This document shows, in pieces, positions 1,819 through 45,331 of a stretch of DNA of 64,000 bases (position 1 is its first letter; the number at the start of each line of letters is the position of its first letter). Below the pieces are notes generated by a model that worked only from the letters and a program-made list of their open reading frames with translations, searched no databases and had not been told where the DNA came from. The stretch covers positions 6,017 through 70,016 of the forward strand of contig CAYYNT010000001.1 of the NCBI GenBank assembly GCA_964473155.1. Direction: 5' to 3'. The position numbers were made by a program, and so were the translations under genes. This stretch comes from an uncultured Gemmatimonadales bacterium (GTDB lineage: Bacteria > Gemmatimonadota > Glassbacteria > GWA2-58-10).

Positions 1819-4800
1819 TCCATACCTCCACCCGCTTTATTTCAGCATCTTCCTTGATCATGCGTCCAAGAGCGCGACGGTATTCCATCGGCATCACCTT
1901 GATGAACTGGTGGATCTTGTCATGCCAGTTATCCAGAATGCTGCGGCCCAGGCGGCTTCCGGTATAACGGACATGCTGCTCGATCATCCGGTTGAGCAGC
2001 GCCCGGTCCTCCTCATCGGCCACGGATTCGAGATCAACCGTGTCCAGATTGCAGCGCTGGTCGAACAGGCGTTGTTCATCGAAAACGAAAGCTATCCCGC
2101 CACTCATTCCGGCCGCGAAATTAAGACCGGTGTTTCCGAGGACCACCACCACACCTCCGGTCATGTATTCGCAGCCGTGGTCTCCCACCCCCTCCACCAC
2201 AGCATACGCCCCGCTGTTACGGATAGCGAATCGCTCACCGGCCCGGCCGCAGAAATAAACCCACCCACCTGTAGCTCCGTAGAGCACGACGTTGCCGACA
2301 ATTATATTCTCCTCGGCCCGGAAAGCGGACCCCTCCGGGGGATGGATCACTATCCTTCCTCCGCTCATGCCTTTGCCCACGTAATCGTTGGCATCGCCGG
2401 CCAGGTGCAGAGCCACTCCATTGGCCAGGAAGGCCCCGAAACTCTGTCCCGCCGAGCCGGACAGCTCAACGCGGATAGTATCCGGCGGCAGGCCGATAGA
2501 ACCGTAGCGCCTGGAAATCTCACCGCTGAGCAACGTGCCCACCGCGCGATTGACATTGCGGATACAGTTGCGGATAGTCACTTTTTCGCGTTGCTGAAGA
2601 GCCGGCCTGGCCTTCTCGATCAACTCCCGGTCAAGAGCGCCCTCGAGGATATCCGGTTGACTGAGAGAACTGCGCAAAGAGCAGCCGTCAGATGAATCCG
2701 GCGGAATAAGCAATCGCTTGAGGTCCACTCCGGCGGCTTTCCAGTGCCTGATCGCCGTGCCGGTGGCAAGCATGTCCATCTGTCCCACCATGTCATCAAA
2801 CCGCCGGAAACCCAAATCGGCCATGTATTCCCGCACTTCCATGGCAATGAAGCGGAAAAAGTTTTCCAGATACTCCGGCTTGCCCTCATACTTCTCGCGA
2901 AGCCGCGAATCCTGAGTGGCGATACCCATCGGGCAGGTATTGAGGTGACACTTGCGCATCATCACGCAACCCAGCACCACCAGGCACGAGGTGGCAAATC
3001 CGAACTCCTCGGCGCCGAGGAGCGCGGCCACGACAACATCCCGGCCGCTTTTAAGCTGCCCGTCTGTCTGAACACGGATGCGGCTGCGCAGATTGTTCAT
3101 CACCAGCACCTGCTGGGTTTCGGCCAGCCCGATCTCCCAGGGGATGCCGGCGTGCTTGATCGAACTGAGCGGCGAAGCCCCGGTGCCTCCAGAATCCCCG
3201 GCGATAACCACGACATCGGCCCTGGCCTTGGCCACTCCCGCCGCCACCGTCCCCACTCCTACCTCGGCCACCAGCTTCACCGAGACACGAGCGCGCGGGT
3301 TGGCGTTTTTCAAGTCGTAAATCAACTGCGCCAGGTCCTCGATGGAGTAGATGTCATGATGCGGCGGTGGAGATATCAGAGTTACTCCCGGCACGCTGTG
3401 ACGGACCCGGGCGATATTATCATCCACCTTGAAACCGGGGAGTTGACCACCCTCACCGGGCTTGGACCCCTGCGAAATTTTGATCTGCATGTCGCGGGCA
3501 TTCGACAGGTAGTAGCTTGTCACACCGAACCGCCCCGAAGCCACCTGCTTTATCGCGCTGCTACGGCTGTCGCCGTTGGGCAGCGGCTTGAAACGCTCCT
3601 CATCCTCACCGCCCTCGCCGCTGTTGCTCATGCCGCCCAGACGGTTCATGGCGACAGCGATAGTTTCATGCACCTCGCGGCTGATCGAACCGAAACTCAT
3701 GGCCCCTGAAACAAACCGCCGCACTATGTTCTCCACCGGCTCTACCTCGTCCAGCGGCACGGGCTGACCTTTCTTGAAATCGAACAGGCTCCGAAGGTTC
3801 TGCAGCTTGCGTTCCCTGTCATTGGTCAGCCTGGAGAAATCCCTGTACATCCCGTAATCTCCCCTACGAGTGGCCTGCTGTAGCAGGAAGATAGTTTCGG
3901 GATTCCACATGTGGTGCTCGCCATCCAGACGGAAGTTATACTCTCCGGAGCGAACATGCATCTGAGTAGCGCTGTTACGGCGGTTGAAAGCATAGCGGTG
4001 ACGGCTCAGCACCTCCTCGATGATGCCTTCCAGCCGGATTCCGCCGATACGCGAAGCCGTACCGGGAAAGAAACTGGAGATGACATCCTCATGGATCCCC
4101 ACCGCCTCGAACATCTGCGCGCCCCTGTAGCTGCGCACGGTGGAAATGCCCATTTTGGAGAAAATCTTGAGCAGGCCTTTCTCGATGGCCTTGATATAAT
4201 GGTCAACCGCATCCTGTACGGTAGTGCCGGACTTAAGCTTGCCGCTTATCGCCATGTCGGCGACAGTCTCGAAAGCCAGGTGCGGGATGATCGCGCTGGC
4301 GCCGAATGCCAGTAGCATTGCGAAGTGAGTGACCTCGCGCGCCTCGCCGGTTTCGATCACCAGGCCGATCTTCGTGCGCAAACCCACCCGGATAAGGTGA
4401 TGATGCACCGCCGAAACCGCCAGCAGGCTTGGCACTGCCGCCCGGTCCGGCCCGATCCCCCGGTCGCTCAGAACTATCAGCGCGTAACCATCCGTCACGG
4501 CTTTCTCCGCCTCGGCATAACATTTCTCCAGTGTGTCCTTAAAGCCCTCGACTCCGAGCGCGGCATCAAACAGGATCGATATAGTGCGGGTGCGGAAATT
4601 CTCGTCCTGGTTGCCCTTGAGCTTGTCCAGGTCATCATTTGTCAGGATCGGGCGGCTCAATTTGAGCAGGTGGGCGTTGCGGGGGGTTTCGTTCAGAAGG
4701 TTGGCCTCCCGGCCGATATAGCTCATCAGCGACATCACCAGTTGCTCCCGGATCGGGTCGATAGCCGGGTTGGTCACCTGAGCGAAAAGCTGCTTGAAAT

Positions 4801-35145: not shown

Positions 35146-36057
35146 TCAGCCTAACACTTTCGTCCCTTCAGAGGTCCGCAACCCCTTGAACGCCTCAATC
35201 AGGCGGGCGGTGACCGGTCCCGGCCGGCCATCGCCGATCGCTCGCCCGTCAAGGGAGATCACCGGAACAAGCTCCGCCCCGGTTCCTGTCAGGAAACATT
35301 CATCCGCGGTGTAGATGTCGTGACGGGTCATGGGGACCTCGTTGACAGTCAAGCCGAGCTTGCGGCCGAGCTCTATGGTCACTCCCCGGGTGACGCCCAT
35401 GAGGAGCGAAAACTCGGGACCGGGGGTGTAAATTTCACCCTTCTTGACCGTGAAAATGTTATCTGCGCTGCACTCGCACACATAGCCGTTGCTGTCCAGC
35501 ATCAGCGCCTCGATGCAACCGGCCAGGTTGGCCTCCATCTTGGCCAGGATGCTGTTCAGGTAATTGAGGCTCTTCACCTTTGAGCTGAGCATGTCCGGGT
35601 TGATCCGCCGGGTGGCAGCGGTGATGACCGTGATGCCTTCCTCGTAAAGCTTGGGCGGATAGAGCTGAATCTTGTCCACGATAACGATGAGCGAACTCTT
35701 GCTGCATTTTCGCGGATCGAGCCCCAGGTCACCCATGCCGCGCGTGACCACCAGACGGATGTAAGCATCGTGCAGGCCGTTCTCGCGCACCGTGTCGATA
35801 ACCGCCTTTTCCACGCCCGCGCGGTCCAGCGGAAGCTCCAGGCCGATAGAACGGGCGCTCTCGCAGAAACGGTCCATGTGTTCTTTAAACCTGAATATCC
35901 GGCCCGAATAAACTCTTATTCCCTCGAAAACTCCGTCCCCGTACAGCAGCCCATGGTCATAAACACTGACTTTGGCCTCGCTTTTCGGGTACAGGGCGCC
36001 GTCGATGTAAACTTTTGGCTCCATATCACCTGGTCCTTGAGAGTTGTGCTGATTCAT
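35146..36057 (-). CDS. ilvE: Branched-chain amino acid aminotransferase (class IV)
   Basis: 303 aa as listed. Class IV core (YGDGVFEGIRVY...). The first 11 codons overlap repeat copy C, so the true start may be the internal MEPKVYIDG. Confidence 0.85.
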   Translation of the reverse strand: MNQHNSQGPGDMEPKVYIDGALYPKSEAKVSVYDHGLLYGDGVFEGIRVYSGRIFRFKEHMDRFCESARSIGLELPLDRAGVEKAVIDTVRENGLHDAYIRLVVTRGMGDLGLDPRKCSKSSLIVIVDKIQLYPPKLYEEGITVITAATRRINPDMLSSKVKSLNYLNSILAKMEANLAGCIEALMLDSNGYVCECSADNIFTVKKGEIYTPGPEFSLLMGVTRGVTIELGRKLGLTVNEVPMTRHDIYTADECFLTGTGAELVPVISLDGRAIGDGRPGPVTARLIEAFKGLRTSEGTKVLG

Positions 36058-36058
36058 T

Positions 36059-36110
36059 GGATCAAATCCCCCCCCGATCCCCCCTTGCGAAAGGGGGAAA
36101 AACAGCCGCC
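36059..36110 (-). repeat. G-run/C-run hairpin repeat element, copy C (inverted orientation)
   Basis: Reverse complement reads CCCCCTTtcgcaaGGGGGGAtcGGGGGGGGGATTTGATCCAatgAATCAgCAC. Directly abuts or overlaps the annotated ilvE start. Confidence 0.65.
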
Positions 36111-36153
36111 ACTGCTGTCCACCAGTAAGCGCCTGGCAATGGCGATTTTAAAT

Positions 36154-36195
36154 TCCCCCATGGAAAGGGGGGAAACAGGGGGTTGTGTCTTTACA
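36154..36195 (+). repeat. Degenerate G-run/C-run hairpin repeat, copy D
   Basis: TCCCCCATGGAAAGGGGGGAAACAGGGGGTTGTG. Opposite orientation to copy C, 45 nt away; together they could form a composite long inverted repeat. Confidence 0.5.
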
Positions 36196-36297
36196 CCGTT
36201 TTTCAACACGCATTAAGAATAAACCTGAAAAAAACAATTCCACCCGCCGAGATACGGCGCGAGGCGCGCATTCCAGCTTATGCGGCAGCGGCCGCGG

Positions 36298-37887
<1,590 letters not shown>

Positions 37888-37897
37888 ACACTGCTCC

Positions 37898-38902
37898 CTA
37901 TTTCTTCTTCAGCCAGCTCATCATCCCGCGCAACTGAGCGCCGACTTTCTCGATGAGGTGCTCGCAGTCCTGACGCTTGCGGGCGTTGAAGTAAGGACGG
38001 CCGACCTTGTTTTCCAGCAGCCAGTTGCGGGCAAAAGAGCCGTCCTGGATCTCGCCAAGCACTTTTTTCATTTCCTGACGGGTCTGCTCGGTAATGATCC
38101 GTTTGCCGACAGTCAGGTCTCCGTACTCGGCCGTGTCCGAGATGGAGTCCCGCATGTTGGCTATGCCTCCCTCATAGATCAGGTCGACAATGAGCTTGAC
38201 TTCGTGCAGGCACTCGAAATAGGCGATCTGAGGCTGATAACCGGCCGCGACCAGAGTGTCGAACCCGGCGCGGATCAATTCGGTCAAGCCGCCGCAGAGC
38301 ACCACCTGCTCACCGAACAGATCCGTTTCCGTCTCCTCGGCGAAAGTGGTTTCGAGAATGCCCGCGCGCCCGGCCCCGATGCCCACGGCGTGAGCCAGGG
38401 CCATGTCATGCGCCTTCCCGCTGGCGTCCTGATGCACGGCGATCAGGGCCGGAACTCCGCCGCCCTGCTCGTAGACCCGGCGAACCAGGTGCCCCGGACC
38501 CTTCGGCGCGACCATATACACATCCACCTCGGCCGGCGGAACGATCTGCCCGAAGTGGATATTGAACCCGTGGCTGAACACCAGGGCCTTGCCTTTTTTC
38601 ATGTGCTGGGCGATATCGGAGCGGTAAACGTCCGCCTGGATCTGGTCCGGCAGCAGTATCTGGATCACGTCAGCCTGCTTGGCCGCCTCGGCCGCGGACA
38701 CCGGCTTGAACCCGTCCGCCACGGCACGCTTGTAATTGGCCGTGCCTTCGAGTTCGCTCACGATGACCTTGAAACCGCTGTCACGAAGGTTCTGAGCCTG
38801 GGCGTGCCCCTGGCTGCCGTATCCCACGATAGCGATCTTCTTGCTCTTGAGGACTGCGGGCTTGGAATCCTTGTCATAATAGATCTTCATCGTTTCCTCC
38901 AT
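37898..38902 (-). CDS. ilvC: Ketol-acid reductoisomerase
   Basis: 334 aa. Motif [21 protein letters not shown] and the C-terminal KARI knotted domain. Confidence 0.92.
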
Positions 38903-39084
38903 CTTGCGGCCTGATTGTTGTACTACAGATAAGGTATTTCAAGGAAGAATGCTCAATTCAAAAGAAATCTATAAGCATGTTATAAAAATGTTTTAAGAAC
39001 ACAACCCCCTGTTTCCCTCTTTTTTATGGGGGGCTTAAATTCTCTGCTGCCAGGCGCTTGCAGATGAATGGCAGTAGTGGGCTT

Positions 39085-39152
39085 TTCCTCCCCCCTTCTA
39101 AAGGGGGGATCGAGGGGGATTTAATCCAACAAATCAACACACCTCTATGTTT
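39085..39152 (+). repeat. G-run/C-run hairpin repeat element, copy B
   Basis: TTTCCTCCCCCCTTctaaaGGGGGGAtcGAGGGGGATTTAATCCAacAAATCAACACaCCT. Lies in the 346-nt ilvN-ilvC spacer. Confidence 0.7.
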
Positions 39153-39248
39153 TCAAAAGTTCGGTATCTCAGAACGTTTCAGAGAACAAGCCCCGCTGCG
39201 CAACCCGGAATATCAGACAAACTGTTTCTGTTTCTCCGTGCAGGCGGT

Positions 39249-39743
39249 TCATTCCGGACTCTTGCCCGCCCACTCGCGCTTGAGCGCAATTACTCCGGTG
39301 CGCGCCATCTCCTTGATCCCGAACGGCTGGAGCATGTTGGTCATGGCCTGCACTTTGTCCGTGCTGCCGGTGACCTCCACGGTCAGGGTCTTCTGCGAAA
39401 TGTCGACTATCTTTGCGCGGAAGACATCCACGATCTGAATGATCGAGGCTCGCGTAGTGGCCGTGCAACTGAGCTTGATCAACGCCAGCTCACGGTTGAC
39501 ATGGCTCTCCTCGGTCAGATCGGTCACTTTTATGACGTCGATGATGCGCCTGAGCTGCTTGATTATCTGCTCGATCACCATATCGTCGCCGCTGGTGACA
39601 ATTGTCATGCGGCTGAGTTCCGGGTTCTCGGTGGCCCCGACACAGATGGAGTCCATGTTGAATCCCTTGCCGCTGAACAGCCCGGCGATACGGGAATAAA
39701 CCCCGAACTTGTTTTCGACCAGAAGCGAAATTGTATGTTGCAT
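39249..39743 (-). CDS. ilvN: Acetolactate synthase small (regulatory) subunit
   Basis: 164 aa. ACT domain (ISLLVENKFGVYSRIAGLFSGKGFN). Confidence 0.9.
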   Translation of the reverse strand: MQHTISLLVENKFGVYSRIAGLFSGKGFNMDSICVGATENPELSRMTIVTSGDDMVIEQIIKQLRRIIDVIKVTDLTEESHVNRELALIKLSCTATTRASIIQIVDVFRAKIVDISQKTLTVEVTGSTDKVQAMTNMLQPFGIKEMARTGVIALKREWAGKSPE

Positions 39744-39783
39744 GGAAGTAACCCTCCCCTTTGTATGCGGTGTCGGCTGAATG

Positions 39784-41508
39784 TCACTCGATGATGTCTG
39801 TGGCCATCTTTCCCGGCGGTATCATCGGGAAGACGTTCTCATGACGGTCCACGCGGAAATCGATCATCACCGGCACATTCTTCACCGCCATGGCCTGCTT
39901 CAGCACCGGGACCACGTCATCGTGACGGTCCACGCGCAAGCCGACCGCGCCATAAGCCTCCACCAGCTTCACAAAGTCGGGATTGGTGTATTCCAGACAG
40001 GTATGGCTGTAGCGCTTGTTGAAAAACAGCTCCTGCCATTGACGGACCATGCCCAGAAAACCGTTGTTAACCACGGCCACGATCAGGTTCAGGCGCTGCC
40101 CTACCGCAGTGGAGAATTCCTGTACGTTCATCTGGAATCCCCCGTCCCCCACCACGGCGACCACTTTCTTGTCCGGGTTGGCCAGGGCCGCGCCGATAGC
40201 CGCCGGGAACCCGAATCCCATCGTCCCGAGCCCTCCGGAAGTGATATTGGTGCGCGGCCTGACGAACTTGTAATGCAGGGCCGCCCACATCTGATGCTGA
40301 CCAACGTCCGTCACCAGGATAGTATCATCGCCGCAGACCTCATGTATCGCCTCGATCACGTATTGCGGCTTTATCTTGTCGCTTTTGCTGTATTTCAGCG
40401 GGTGCGATTGCTTCCAGTGCTCTATCAGCTTCACCCAGTCCTCTGTCGGAGCGGGCTGGACCAGCTTCTCCAATTCGGTCAGCACCTTGCGGCAGTCGCC
40501 CACGATAGGATAATCGACCTTGATACTCTTGCTGATCGAGGCCGGATCGACATCGATATGCATAACCTCGGCCTTGGGCGCGAAAGCATCCACCTTGCCG
40601 GTCACCCGGTCATCGAAACGCGAACCCACCGCAATGAGCAGGTCGCATTCGTTCACCGCCATGTTGGCGTACCATGTGCCGTGCATTCCCAGCATGCCCA
40701 AGGACAGAGGATCTGTCTCCGGGAACGCGCCAAGGCCTAACAGGGTTGTGGTGACCGGAATGCGGGTCTTGCGCGCCAGACGGGTCAGTTCCTCAGAGGC
40801 GTCCGAGAGAATGCAACCGCCGCCCACGTACAGGACCGGACGCTGCGCCTGGGCCATCACCTCGGCCGCTTTGCGTATCTGCTGGCTGTGGCCGTACTCG
40901 GTGGGCTTGTAGCCCCGGATGTTGGCCTTTTCAGGATAAATGAACTCGGTCTCGGAAAGAAGGACATCCTTCGGGACATCCACCAGCACGGGGCCGGGAC
41001 GGCCCGAGGCGGCCAGATAAAACGCCTCCTTGAAAGTGGCGGCCAGGTCCCTGACATCCCGCACCAGGTAATTGTGCTTGGTGATCGGGCGGGTTATACC
41101 GACTATGTCCACTTCCTGGAAGGCGTCGTTGCCGATCGCCGCGGTGGCCACCTGGCCGGTGATGCAGACCACGGGGATGGAGTCCATGTAGCTGGTGGCG
41201 ATACCGGTGACCAGGTTGGTGGCGCCCGGGCCGCTGGTGGCCAGGCATACCCCCACCCGTCCGCTCGAACGCGCGTAACCGTCCGCCATGTGCGCCGCGC
41301 CCTGTTCGTGACGGGTCAGGACCAGCTTGGGACGGCTGTAATTATAAAGTTTGTCGAATACCGGGATAACCACTCCTCCCGGATACCCGAAAACATAGTC
41401 CACCTTCTCTTCGATCAGGCAGCGGACCAGTATGTCGCTGCCGACAAGGCGTTCCACTCGTTTGGAAGCCGTTGCCGCAGCCGGTTCCTCTTCTGTCATC
41501 AGTTGCAT
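39784..41508 (-). CDS. ilvB: Acetolactate synthase large subunit (ThDP-dependent)
   Basis: 574 aa. ThDP-binding GDG...NN motif (VGDGGFQMN...VNNGFLGMV). FAD-binding central domain. Confidence 0.92.
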
Positions 41509-41697
41509 TCTTCATCTCCCCCATCAGGTGGTGAGGTTGAGCCCGGACCGATGTGCCGTATGCCGCGGGTATGTGCGGACGGCCGCATCTGCTCGCTCGG
41601 AGCCGGACCGGGAATTAACATGATTTATTCTGTCGCCTGGTGCTGCCGGTACATCAACGGGTGAAACATGAACTCACCCGGCTATCAATTTCTGCCC

Positions 41698-43356
41698 TCA
41701 GTCGTTCGGAAAAACCGCGCCGGTATTGGCCGAGGTGACCTGGGCCGCATAACGCCTCAGCCATCCGCGGCTGAACTTTCCTTCCGGGGCCTTCCATTCC
41801 GCGCGGCGGCGTTCCAGGTCAGCCGGTTCCACATGCAGGTCGAGCCTGCGCTCCGCGATGTCGATACTGATCCTGTCCCCGTCCTTCACCAGCGCTATCG
41901 GCCCTCCCACCGCCGCCTCGGGCGCCACGTGCCCTATGCACGGTCCACGGGTGCCTCCCGAAAAGCGGCCATCCGTTATCAGAGCCACGCCGCTGGTGAG
42001 TCCCGCACCGGTCAGGGCCGCGGTCGGACCAAGCATCTCGCGCATACCGGGGCCGCCCTTGGGTCCCTCGTAGCGCACGACCAGCACTTCGCCGGTCTTG
42101 ACTTTCTTTTCCATTATCGCTTTCATGCAGGCTTCTTCGCTGTCAAAACAGCGGGCCGTGCCCGTGAACTTGCGCATGTCCTTCTCCACCGCGCTCTGCT
42201 TGACCACCGAGCCATCCGGGGCCAGGCTGCCCGACAGCACTGCCAGTCCGCCCTCGGCATGGATCGGATTGTCCAGCGGGCGGATGACATCGGCCACGGC
42301 CACCACGCCGCGGCGGGCGGTCTCGGAGACCGGCCAGCCGTTGACCGTGGGCGAGTCCTGGAGAAAGCCGGCCAGACGGTTCAGCACGGCGGGCACTCCA
42401 CCCGCGTACTCAAGGTCCTCGATGAAATACTCCCCGCCGGGTCGCAGGCTGGTCAGGTGCGGTATCCGGCGGCTGATCTGATCAAACACTTCCAGAGGCA
42501 GCGGCACGCCAGCGCTGTGCGCGATTGCCAGAAGGTGAAGGACGCTGTTGGTAGAGCCCCCCAGGGCCAGGTCCAGGCAGATCGCGTTTTCGAACGCGGC
42601 GCGGGTAAGAATCTTTCGCGCGTTAAGTCCCTCGCGCACCATCTCGACTGCCCGATAGCCGCTGTCGAACGCCAGGCGGCGCTTCTTCGCGCTGGCGGAC
42701 ATGGCGGTGCCGCAGCCGAACAGGCTCATGCCCAGGGCTTCGGTCAGACAAGCCATTGTATTGGCCGTGTAAAGCCCGGCGCAGGAGCCGCTGCCGGGAC
42801 AAGCCTCAAGTTCGAACTGGTGCAGGCGGTTTTCGTCTATCTTGCCTGCCATGCAGCTTCCGACCGCCTCGAACGTGTCGCGCACCAGATCGAGCCTGCG
42901 CCCCTCGAAACTGCCGCTGTGCATCGGACCGGCGGTCAGAACCACGCAGGGGATGTCCAGACGGGCGGCGGCCATCAGCATACCGGGGGTGATTTTGTCG
43001 CAGTCGGTCAACAGCACCAGAGCGTCAAGGGCGTGAGCCATGGTCACGGTCTCGACGCAGTCGGCGATCAGTTCGCGGCTGGGCAGAGAGAAACTCATCC
43101 CTCGGTGCCCCATCGCAATCCCGTCGCATACCGCCGGCACGCCGAAAATGAACGCCGAACCGCCCGCGCTGTGCACGCCTTTCTCGATGAAACGCTCCAG
43201 GGAGCGCATCTCGATATGGCCGGGAACCAGATCGCTGAAACTGGAGCAGATTCCGATAAAAGGCTGCTCGAGCTGCCTTCTGGTCACTCCGGTGGCATGG
43301 AGCAATGCCCGGTGCGGAGCGCGTTCGATACCTTGCTTGACTGAATCGCTTCTCAT
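41698..43356 (-). CDS. ilvD: Dihydroxy-acid dehydratase
   Basis: 552 aa. ILVD/EDD family signatures (CDKITPG, Fe-S Cys ligands, SGGT...GPC). Confidence 0.92.
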
Positions 43357-43491
43357 TTTAAGGTCTTCCTCTCTCTCCGGGATTCAAAATTACATAAACT
43401 GCGTCCGGATTTTCCGGGCCCGTATTCCCAGGAGCGGTTCTCTGTTGCTTGGTTTTTGAAGATTCGAAATCTGATCCGGGGAACGGGCTGT

Positions 43492-43659
43492 CGATTTACC
43501 GACTCAAGGCGCGTATAATGCTGCCTACACCGTTCCCCTCTACAAGGGGCAGAATAATAATCAACAAACCGAGGATAATCAACGCGGAGGAAATGAAGGC
43601 GCCGGCAGCGCCGGATAGGCCGGTCTGCATCGGGAATTGAAAAGAATATCCGGACTGCA
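43492..43659 (-). CDS. Candidate ilv operon leader peptide (transcription-attenuation type)
   Basis: 54-codon minus-strand ORF, too short for the supplied track: MQSGYSFQFPMQTGLSGAAGAFISSALIILGLLIIILPLVEGNGVGSIIRALSR. A run of 15 residues contains 12 Ile/Leu/Val. It sits 135 nt upstream of ilvD and is followed by alternative CCGGAT/ATCCGG pairings and a weak hairpin plus T-rich tract. Confidence 0.4.
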
Positions 43660-44080
43660 TGGCTGACATCGCACTATTCCCTTCGAATTAACTCCGCGGC
43701 TCTGCTGGCCGCGGACGGCAAATTTGCCTCGCCGTAACTATAATACGCCGGGTAGATTAGAATTTGTTTAGTATAAAAACAGCTCTTCCGTTTGTCAAGC
43801 CATTTCTGTATTCATTAATCCATATTCAAACGGCTTTATTATAAATCTGGAATAAAACTCCGAACATACTCAAACAAGCGACCATATTCCGGATATATGA
43901 GCTAAGCAATTGCGCTCTGGAAAAAGCCTGAAAAGAAACATGTCTCATCAGGACAGGAAGCCCAAAGTTATTGACCTGAACAGCCGAATTCCGTATATTC
44001 TGGTCATTTGCCGAAGGATTTGGCCGCATCGGCCGCCGCAATGTCATCGATGCGGGAACGCAAAACGAAAGAATAAATTA

Positions 44081-45331
44081 ATGGCCAGAGCCAAGAGACA
44101 AAGCAAAAAAGCCGTGCTGGTGATCGAGGACGGGCGCACGTTCCAGGGCAGCTCTTTCGGGGCGGAGGGCGAGACTGCCGGCGAGGTTGTTTTCAACACC
44201 AGCATGACCGGCTATCAGGAGATACTTTTCGATCCCTCCTACCGCGGACAGATTGTCACCATGACCTATCCGCACATAGGCAACACGGGAATCAACCTGA
44301 GCGACCTGGAGAGCGGCCGCATCCAGGCGGCCGGGTTCGTGGCCCGCGAGTACGTGGATGCCTATTCCAACTGGAGAGCCACCGCCAGCCTGGACGAGAT
44401 GATGCGCGAACAGGCTGTCGTCGGAATAGAGGGAATCGACACCCGCGCACTGACCCTTCATATCCGTGAAAAGGGAGCGATGAAGGGAATAATCTCCACG
44501 GTGGACTTCAATTACGAATCCCTGATGAACAAGCTGTACAAAGCTCCGGGGATGATCGGGCGCGATCTGGTGCGCGATGTCACCACACCGAAAAGCTACA
44601 TTTTCAAACCCGGACAGGAACCGGAATCGGCTGTGGACTATTACACCTATACTCAGGACACGCCGGAAAACCTGGCCGCCTGGAAACCGGATGACAACCC
44701 GGATGGCAAGCATTACATAGTCGCCATGGACTGCGGGATCAAGCTCAACATGTTGCGCATTTTCTCCTTTTTCAACTGCGTGGTGCTGGCCGTTCCCGCC
44801 ACTTACGGAGCAGCGGAGATACTGAGCCTGAATCCGGACGGCCTGTTCCTGTCGAACGGCCCGGGCGACCCGGAAAGCCTGACTTATGTGATCAAGACCG
44901 TGAAGGACATCCTCAGGCTGCGCCCGGAACTGCCGGTTTTCGGCATCTGCCTGGGACATCAGATACAGGCCTGGGCTTTCGGCGGCAAGACCTACAAGCT
45001 GAAATTCGGTCATCGTGGAGCCAATCACCCGGTGCTCGACCTCGCAACCGGAAAGATAGAAATAACCACGCAGAACCACGGTTTCGCCGTAGCCGGTAAT
45101 AAGAACTCCCTGGGCGTCTGGGAAATCGAAGGCTGCCCGGACCTCGAGGTCACGCATGTCAACCTGAACGACAACACCATCGAGGGGTTCCGTCATAAAA
45201 CCCTGCCGGTGTTCTCGGTGCAGTATCATCCCGAATCAAGCCCCGGACCGCACGACAGTTGGAGTCTGTTCCGCCGGTTTATCGGTCTGATCGAGCAGCA
45301 GAAACAATCCGAGGTGCAGGCGGCCGGATGA
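44081..45331 (+). CDS. carA: Carbamoyl-phosphate synthase small (glutaminase) subunit
   Basis: ATG checked at 44081 (MARAKRQSKKAVLVIEDGRTFQG...). Class I GATase triad region GICLGHQ. Confidence 0.9.
   Translation: MARAKRQSKKAVLVIEDGRTFQGSSFGAEGETAGEVVFNTSMTGYQEILFDPSYRGQIVTMTYPHIGNTGINLSDLESGRIQAAGFVAREYVDAYSNWRATASLDEMMREQAVVGIEGIDTRALTLHIREKGAMKGIISTVDFNYESLMNKLYKAPGMIGRDLVRDVTTPKSYIFKPGQEPESAVDYYTYTQDTPENLAAWKPDDNPDGKHYIVAMDCGIKLNMLRIFSFFNCVVLAVPATYGAAEILSLNPDGLFLSNGPGDPESLTYVIKTVKDILRLRPELPVFGICLGHQIQAWAFGGKTYKLKFGHRGANHPVLDLATGKIEITTQNHGFAVAGNKNSLGVWEIEGCPDLEVTHVNLNDNTIEGFRHKTLPVFSVQYHPESSPGPHDSWSLFRRFIGLIEQQKQSEVQAAG

Follow-up and report, generated by a model that had tools for sequence, protein, structure and literature searches.

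A candidate branched-chain amino acid leader-peptide attenuator upstream of ilvD in Glassbacteria-like Gemmatimonadota

The stretch of DNA analysed here, 64,000 nucleotides (nt) from an uncultured Gemmatimonadales bacterium (GTDB lineage Gemmatimonadota, Glassbacteria, GWA2-58-10; assembly GCA_964473155.1, contig CAYYNT010000001.1, positions 6,017 to 70,016 of the forward strand; hereafter the window), carries a short open reading frame (ORF) rich in isoleucine, leucine and valine codons directly before the dihydroxy-acid dehydratase gene ilvD. A conserved and previously uncurated Ile/Leu/Val leader-peptide sensor at this position is well supported. The element probably controls the ilvD-ilvBN-ilvC-cimA-ilvE operon as a leader-peptide attenuator of the ribosome-mediated type, sensing charged Ile-, Leu- and Val-tRNA, and the ORF is, with greater confidence, a translated regulatory upstream ORF (uORF). 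Five features of a classical attenuator were looked for, four of which were found: (i) an ORF with a Shine-Dalgarno (SD) sequence placed after a promoter; (ii) a cluster of cognate codons; (iii) the pattern of sequence drift expected of such a leader; (iv) two alternative helices, 1:2 and 2:3. The fifth, an intrinsic terminator (3:4) excluded by helix 2:3, was not found in the window. The original prediction of a branched-chain amino acid attenuator thus holds for the leader element, which is conserved in 10 other loci, but not for the terminator hairpin of the classical kind, which is missing.

The leader open reading frame and its conservation

All coordinates refer to the window, and the leader and the ilv genes lie on the minus strand. 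The leader ORF consists of 57 codons and a UAA stop (43498-43496), occupies positions 43496..43669 and is translated as MSAMQSGYSFQFPMQTGLSGAAGAFISSALIILGLLIIILPLVEGNGVGSIIRALSR. It had been described as 54 codons running from 43659 to 43492; the ORF exists, but that version starts from the second in-frame ATG (43660) and its ends are off by 1-4 nt. The first ATG (43669) is the likelier start, because the SD sequence AAGGGAA (43677..43683) sits 7 nt upstream of it. Farther upstream lies a sigma-70-type promoter, TTGACA-17-TATACT (43770..43798, 11/12 match), with the -35 hexamer at 43798-43793 and the -10 hexamer at 43775-43770. The predicted transcription start, about 43763, is upstream of the leader ORF. 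Before the ORF, the window and its closest relative, locus L082, have about 30 nt more of 5' untranslated sequence (43686-43760, minus strand) than the other groups of relatives defined below (B and C); this region contains two hairpins, GGCAAAUUUGCC and CCGCGGCCAGCAGAGCCGCGG, both absent from those groups.

The most prominent part of the leader is the Ile/Leu/Val run LIILGLLIIILPLV (43541..43582), where 12 of 15 consecutive residues (LIILGLLIIILPLVE) are isoleucine, leucine or valine, as originally predicted. This is the maximum among 614 six-frame ORFs of 20-100 amino acids (aa) in the window, the runner-up reaching 10. Counted from the ORF translation, 17 of the 33 final residues of the peptide are Ile, Leu or Val. 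The core of the run that is invariant at the nucleotide level is TTGTTGATTATTATTCT (43567-43551). The codons chosen for these residues are rare in 13 genes of the window: ATT makes up 6 of the 8 Ile codons (15% in the genes), TTG 4 of the 8 Leu codons (7%) and GTA both Val codons (3.4%).

A promoter inside the ORF (TTGATT-17-TATTAT, 43582-43554, 9/12 match) was considered as a cause of the nucleotide conservation and rejected, since L105 and L109 have no -35 element there. This promoter-like site is kept in groups A and B, not in C, and is probably a by-product of AT-rich Ile and Leu codons.

The nearest ilvD among the GTDB species representatives is only 67% identical, so that no close genome is found there. 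The search of a collection of 5.8 billion proteins returned one ilvD cluster at 92% identity, followed by a few at 72-73% and a single one at 69%; the others were at about 68% or below. The leader ORF was recognised upstream of ilvD in L082/L083 (92%), in L084, L085/L086 and L087 (72-73%) and in L105 (69%), and carA and sppA are mostly found divergently upstream, matching the window. The Poribacteria loci (ilvD 68%) have mutL upstream and the leader is absent. A profile built from seven leader peptides matched nine small "proteins", every one of them this leader, and these matches supplied loci L109-L112. A scan with a DNA pattern yielded 17 stretches, two of them genuine, and supplied L097; a metagenome scan with a pattern from the peptide alignment gave 113 matches, none of which passed tblastn.

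The family thus defined comprises 11 distinct leaders, that of the window and those of 10 other metagenomic loci, in three groups: A (the window and L082), B (L084, L085, L087, L097, L110, L111 and L112) and C (L105 and L109). L109 lies on a contig labelled Glassbacteria_GWA2_58_10, and L085 belongs to a metagenome-assembled genome (MAG) that NCBI lists as "Gemmatimonadota bacterium". Glassbacteria is a class within Gemmatimonadota (PMC11596202). The labels place the window most probably in this neighbourhood.

All 10 other loci carry the ORF, the SD sequence, the promoter and the Ile/Leu/Val run, confirming the proposed conservation of a small ORF in the ilvD upstream regions. Their ilvD is 69-92% identical where it lies on the contig, and wherever the contig reaches ilvD the leader element stands directly upstream of it. 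Both promoter hexamers occupy the same place in 11/11 leaders, with a single -35 variant (TTGACC in L112), and every relative keeps an AAGGA core of the SD sequence at a distance of 8-12 nt from the ATG. The leader ORF has 48-57 codons across the 11 leaders; that of L111 was called as 71, from an upstream GTG. The conserved part of the peptide is the run LL(I/V)IIL(P)L with G-(N/S/I)-G-x-G-(I/V)(I/V) after it. A nucleotide profile of the leader matched only leader loci among 113 sequences (about 0.8 Mb), with no match in 80 ilvD loci from other phyla or in the three Poribacteria loci.

Within the family, the frame of the leader ORF is the only one free of stop codons in 11/11 sequences, the +1 frame having 1-10 stops in each and the +2 frame stops in five. 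Insertions and deletions inside the ORF are 3, 3, 6 and 12 nt long, all multiples of three, and those outside it have arbitrary lengths. The three codon positions share the variable sites about equally (13/16/17), and nonsynonymous changes exceed synonymous ones in close pairs (10 vs 5, 7 vs 6, 16 vs 5, 14 vs 6). Moreover, the N-terminal halves of the peptide are unrelated among the three groups, the peptide belongs to no Pfam family, and single-sequence searches with it (5.8 billion sequences; 1.84 billion representatives) returned only the query itself. The single open frame, the even spread of sites and the nonsynonymous excess indicate that translation is under selection and the peptide sequence is not. 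On this comparative evidence, the leader ORF appears to be one that must be translated, its product not being a conserved protein.

Competing RNA helices and the proposed mechanism

Three conserved, mutually complementary blocks were identified in the leader RNA. Segment 1 (GGGGAACGG, 43530..43538) lies inside the ORF, from the third base of E44 to G47, where it encodes the G-N-G motif, and supplies the 5' strand of helix 1:2, the protector. Segment 2 (GCCCGUUCCCC, 43478..43488) begins 7 nt after the stop codon and is the most conserved non-coding block. Segment 3 (UCCUGGGAAUACGGGC, 43418..43433), a GGGGAAC-type block also written GGGAAUACGGGC, is the 3' arm of the antiterminator-type helix 2:3. 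Each 18-nt piece of the leader was compared with segment 2 in the 10 leaders that retain it, and in 10/10 the two best partners are segments 1 and 3. Segment 1 is the best upstream partner (-14 to -22 kcal/mol in the 10 leaders) and segment 3 the best downstream one (-19.6 kcal/mol in the window, -20 to -27 in relatives); the others reach about -15 kcal/mol or weaker.

The RNAalifold consensus contains helix 1:2 and a hairpin with CCGG arms, described below. In a ViennaRNA masking test, the first 14 nt (segment 1) were barred from pairing in six leaders; helix 1:2 formed with segment 1 free and helix 2:3 with segment 1 masked in 6/6. In the helix pair counts, about 90% of the cells are paired. 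The original prediction of mutually exclusive pairings is upheld in the form of segment 1:segment 2 versus segment 2:segment 3. The particular pairing named there, CCCCGGATC with ATCCGG, is not retained: its first arm is absent in L082 (CCCAGACC) and it would be pseudoknotted relative to helix 2:3. In the window and L082, the sole other conserved partner of segment 3 is UCCCGG(AG) at 43382-43375 (-13 to -14 kcal/mol). Folding gives two alternative states, 1:2 and 2:3, as had been foreseen, whereas the stable terminator alternative is not seen.

Segment 1 is flanked by Ile, Leu and Val codons: L42 and V43 lie at most three codons upstream, and V48, I51 and I52 one to five codons downstream, the latter appearing as "G-I-I" or "G-V-I" in the other groups. 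A ribosome paused at any of these codons would cover segment 1. In the proposed mechanism, transcription would begin at the conserved promoter, at about 43763, and a ribosome would load at the conserved SD sequence and translate the 57-codon leader, the second half of which is full of rare AUU, UUG and GUA codons. With a good supply of the amino acids, the ribosome would clear the leader and be released at the UAA; segment 1 would pair with segment 2, leaving segment 3 free (OFF). Under Ile, Leu or Val shortage, the ribosome would linger at L42, V43, V48, I51 or I52 and cover segment 1, segment 2 would pair with segment 3 (ON), and RNA polymerase would read into ilvD. The position of the ribosome would accordingly select the helix, with 2:3 as the presumed ON state, and in the folding models the choice between 1:2 and 2:3 has the protector/antiterminator logic of classical attenuators. 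The weakest step is the output, which would be a premature stop of transcription at or after the CCGG hairpin and the U-rich region, because a canonical intrinsic terminator is absent.

One member of the family departs from this arrangement. In L111 (281-310; compare L097 939-990), segment 2 is absent: a deletion of about 25 nt (cttggcccgttccctgagcaatccg) directly follows the leader stop, and segment 1, segment 3 and the CCGG hairpin are kept. The coverage of this contig is 1.9x, and the loss may reflect faulty assembly or else be a natural variant fixed in one of the two states.

The output step and rival explanations

The CCGG hairpin (CCGGA-AAA-UCCGG, 43405..43417) has both CCGG arms invariant in 10 leaders. 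The U-rich stretch GUUUAUGUAAUUUUG (43385..43399), which begins 5 nt after it, is also present in L082, is not conserved in the other groups, and could be a pause or weak termination region. Both the hairpin and the T-rich tract of the original prediction are thus present, but the hairpin is weak, the tract is 5 nt away, and together they do not make a canonical terminator. Segment 3 overlaps the 5' arm of the hairpin in 8/10 of the leaders retaining segment 2 (groups B and C), so that helix 2:3 and the hairpin are mutually exclusive in these groups. A search of the interval from the ORF to ilvD for canonical intrinsic terminators found none in the window, nor was one found in any of the 10 leaders. 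The sole terminator-like candidate, a G+C-rich hairpin with a U-rich tail (GGCGCUGCCGGCGCC UUCAUUUCCU; 43612-43598, minus strand), lies inside the leader ORF, is not conserved in L082 and was rejected.

In group B (L084, L085, L087, L097, L111 and L112), a second small hairpin was observed within the 30-40 nt that follow the CCGG hairpin (e.g. L087 2412-2445). It reads GUCGAA-GUCUG-UUCGAG in L087 and GCCGAA-CUCCA-UUCGGG in L085, has a single C-G to U-A exchange along with a G-G mismatch that recurs, is followed by GGYGG in most of these leaders (not in L085), and is absent from the window's group.

Several observations weigh against attenuation of the classical kind. In the window, the CCGG hairpin reaches -8.7 kcal/mol, no U tract adjoins it, and 3 of the 10 nt after it are U; across the leaders the values are -6 to -10 kcal/mol and 0-4 U in the following 10 nt (L085 none). 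Textbook terminators with 9-14-bp stems and T runs occur elsewhere in the window, e.g. at 49946-49926 and 31382-31352. In the window and L082, an insertion separates segment 3 from the hairpin, which adjoins it without overlap and persists in both folding states; because it survives in both, no OFF/ON difference at the output is visible in the window. The arms of the helices are near-invariant, with one compensatory pair (A-U in L097), and shuffle controls were not exceeded; since the arms hardly vary, covariation tests of 1:2, 2:3 and the CCGG hairpin are little informative. The most conserved block of the peptide, LLIII, lies 12-27 nt upstream of segment 1, and a stall there should not unmask segment 2, because a stalled ribosome covers only about 12-15 nt. 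The stop codon is 7 nt from segment 2 (3 nt in group C), so a terminating ribosome would barely cover it. Finally, the G+C content of the intergenic region is lower than that of the genes, which could partly explain the rare-codon bias.

Sequestration of the SD sequence of ilvD (AGAGGAAG, 43372-43365, minus strand) was considered as an alternative output and rejected, the mean unpaired probability of the SD-AUG region being equal with segment 1 free and masked (0.59/0.59 in the window, 0.50/0.49 in L082, 0.46/0.45 in L085). In several relatives, 150-650 nt of inserted sequence separate the switch from ilvD. The unchanged accessibility and these insertions favour an output at the transcript level over one at the ribosome-binding site, and control through translation initiation of ilvD is unlikely on the folding models. 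In several group B relatives, a repeat-like insert (AATCCACAGATTACGCAGAT and variants) stands between an intact switch and ilvD (L084 ~2935-3000; L087 ~2500-2800; L097 ~1120-1147; L111 ~500-602), and L087 and L111 also have a PDDEXK_3 gene or fragment there.

At the CCGG hairpin and the U-rich region, the output could take the form of intrinsic termination of a weak or non-canonical kind, of Rho-dependent termination, or of pausing or processing. Leader-ORF control of Rho-dependent termination operates in tna of E. coli and in mgtA and corA of Salmonella. According to one rival explanation, the sensor is the same, and the 1:2/2:3 choice governs Rho-dependent termination, pausing or RNA processing instead of intrinsic termination. 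The A/C-rich spacer of about 42 nt, together with segment 3, would be single-stranded in the OFF state and looped by helix 2:3 in the ON state, and the conserved hairpin and U-rich stretch would be a pause or processing site. The absence of canonical terminators from 10/10 leaders, in contrast to their use elsewhere in the genome, an invariant hairpin too weak for termination alone, a spacer with more C than G (10 C, 7 G, 18 A) and little predicted structure, and the inserts of variable length before ilvD, which point to a transcript-level mechanism, all speak for such an output. Yet the spacer is A-rich, not clearly C-rich, and, with about 40 nt, rather short for Rho to load on; it is not obvious that closure into a 45-nt loop would hide it, and nothing positive separates this explanation from a weak intrinsic terminator, so that we regard it as rather unlikely. 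A Gemmatimonadota/Glassbacteria-specific variant of attenuation, with a non-canonical expression platform around the CCGG hairpin (Rho, pausing or processing), can be put forward tentatively.

Two further explanations dispense with the leader peptide as a sensor. A structured cis-acting RNA working without translation, i.e. a riboswitch or a protein- or tRNA-binding site, might switch between 1:2 and 2:3 with the ORF as a by-product, which would suit the three strongly conserved complementary blocks, the extra conserved hairpins in L084, L085, L087, L097 and L112, and the invariance of TTGTTGATTATTATTCT at the nucleotide level, unusual for a mere constraint on codon content. It is improbable, as neither the leader region of the window nor six relatives matched an Rfam family, no conserved junction of several helices resembles a ligand pocket, and the SD sequence with its ATG, the single open frame, the in-frame insertions and deletions and the Ile/Leu/Val enrichment would be left unexplained. 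The other explanation, that the product of the ORF is a small hydrophobic (membrane) peptide having a function of its own, its place near ilvD being incidental or a matter of co-expression, draws on a C-terminal half (AAGAFISSALIILGLLIIILPLV) that is hydrophobic and long enough for a membrane helix, on a length of 48-57 aa that exceeds classical leader peptides, and on the fact that the ORF was called as a gene in several metagenomes. We consider it highly improbable, because the homologues of this Pfam-less peptide are this leader only, its unrelated N-terminal halves, nonsynonymous excess and lack of third-position bias do not fit a conserved protein, the conserved G-N/S-G motif simply encodes segment 1 of the RNA switch, and the best-conserved nucleotides run past the stop codon into segments 2 and 3. 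Leader-peptide attenuation of the ilv operon, with the output step qualified as above, is the reading preferred here.

Relation to known leaders and neighbouring features

The classical leader-peptide attenuators of trp type include those of the E. coli operons ilvGMEDA (ilvL) and ilvBN (ivbL). The window element resembles ilvL and ivbL in several respects: (i) a short leader ORF rich in codons for the end products; (ii) a segment after the ORF that has two alternative partners, one within the ORF and one downstream; (iii) a stop codon between segments 1 and 2. The rare codons of the leader are comparable to the CUA codons of the E. coli leu leader. The two differ in peptide length, 48-57 aa in the window family against 14-32 aa, and in the fourth element, where the weak CCGG hairpin, which lacks a U tract, stands in place of an intrinsic terminator; in the window there is no competition between this hairpin and the antiterminator. 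Homology to E. coli IlvL was considered and rejected; BLASTP with an IlvL query sequence gave E=15, and the resemblance is compositional only.

By position, the closest known system is the ilvD leader of Staphylococcus aureus, which also lies directly upstream of ilvD as the first gene of the ilv operon. It encodes a clade-conserved attenuator peptide of 26 aa rich in Leu and Ile, with three Ile codons followed by Leu codons; alternative folds are predicted, mutations in the peptide or the terminator relieve repression, and 52 nt past the stop there is a clear terminator, a hairpin ending in poly-U (PMC5794164). This leader, for which there is mutational support, comes from another phylum and has no sequence relationship with the candidate element of the window. 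RNA motifs carrying uORFs rich in branched-chain amino acid codons, with attenuation proposed, have been described as ilvB-II (Corynebacterium), ilvB-OMG (several phyla) and ilvB (Leptospira) (PMC10272879), and ilv leader peptides have been reported or predicted in Actinobacteria (PMC1262725). The ilvB-II, ilvB-OMG and Leptospira motifs precede ilvB whereas the window element precedes ilvD, and it differs from all of these, the actinobacterial leaders included, in lineage and in consensus. Owing to the cases from Staphylococcus, Corynebacterium, several phyla and Actinobacteria, leader-peptide attenuation is not confined to Proteobacteria, and the view that ribosome-stalling attenuation is essentially proteobacterial is outdated (PMC5794164, PMC10272879, PMC1262725).

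In Rfam 15, the whole window gave two tRNAs at the gathering score and no match to a leader, ilvB-OMG, T-box or riboswitch family. At E<=10, the region 43000-44300 had only chance-level matches (snoZ223, Hairpin ribozyme, mir-1954, Proteo-phage-1), and six relatives had nothing at E<=1. The element would accordingly represent a new, uncurated family of branched-chain amino acid leader peptides, with no member in Rfam, in barely studied uncultured Glassbacteria-like Gemmatimonadota. "Hypothetical 50-aa proteins" upstream of ilvD in metagenomes would then be regulatory uORFs. For such MAGs the family offers a rule of annotation based on promoter, uORF and switch, and its alignment could seed a new RNA family; its missing canonical terminator makes it a test case for leader-peptide sensors coupled to outputs other than a hairpin plus U tract.

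The first gene under control is ilvD (41698..43356), and the remainder of the operon, from ilvB to ilvE, extends over 35146..41508 on the same strand. The order given in the original prediction was verified: ilvB (39784-41508) by its Pfam TPP_enzyme domains, and ilvN (39249-39743), ilvC (37898-38902), cimA (36298-37887) and ilvE (35146-36057) each by an NCBIfam equivalog match above the cut-off. After ilvE, argD and argJ come next in gene order.

The spacer between ilvD and ilvB (41509-41697, minus strand) is unusually long in all relatives, 189-317 nt (L082 4660-4900; L084 4657-4951; L087 4657-4973; L105 3657-3847; L109 4925-5114). It is partly conserved within groups, CATTCCCGGTCCGGCTCCGAGCGAGCAGATGCGGCCG being common to the window and L082, and in L082 a strong hairpin, GGGCACGGCATGCCGTGCCC, lies directly 3' of ilvD. 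A second attenuator in this spacer was considered and rejected, since it has no Ile/Leu/Val-rich ORF. There is no Rfam match in the spacer, which may serve as an internal promoter or processing site or contain another regulatory RNA.

On the other side of the leader lies the divergent gene carA. Both the listed ORF and the JGI call start it at a TTG (43910, plus strand), giving 473 aa, while carA in the relatives has 415-437 aa (463 in L109). An ATG at 44081 (plus strand; MARAKRQSKK...) would give a carA of about 416 aa, as in the relatives, and a promoter-like sequence, TTGACC-17-TATATT, occurs at 43971-43999 between the two starts. The true start is probably 44081. The divergent intergenic region, for which 540 nt had been given, is indeed divergent from carA but would then be larger, about 724 nt.

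Other types of small ORF were noticed upstream of ilvD outside the family. Two Gastranaerophilales/Vampirovibrio MAGs (L068 2798-2921 and L069 2599-2674) have unrelated Ile/Leu-rich mini-ORFs 80 nt upstream of ilvD, encoding …KALIIILLIILALSLIH and MVLLISTKALLLILAIIIALKLKH. A simple scan showed no terminator-like site at either; these Melainabacteria-type mini-ORFs may be an independent leader-peptide family. In many ilvD loci of Nitrospirota, Deltaproteobacteria and unclassified MAGs (L004-L012, L021, L024, L025, L028, L030, L036-L038), a conserved gene of about 76 aa stands 100-400 nt upstream of ilvD instead of the leader. Its product is charged and coiled-coil-like (MKEQEI..LKKENEEF.KL.EEH..LD..L.E.D.K.YLTPEEE.E.K..QK.KL..KD.M), and we take it to be DUF465/YdcH-like.

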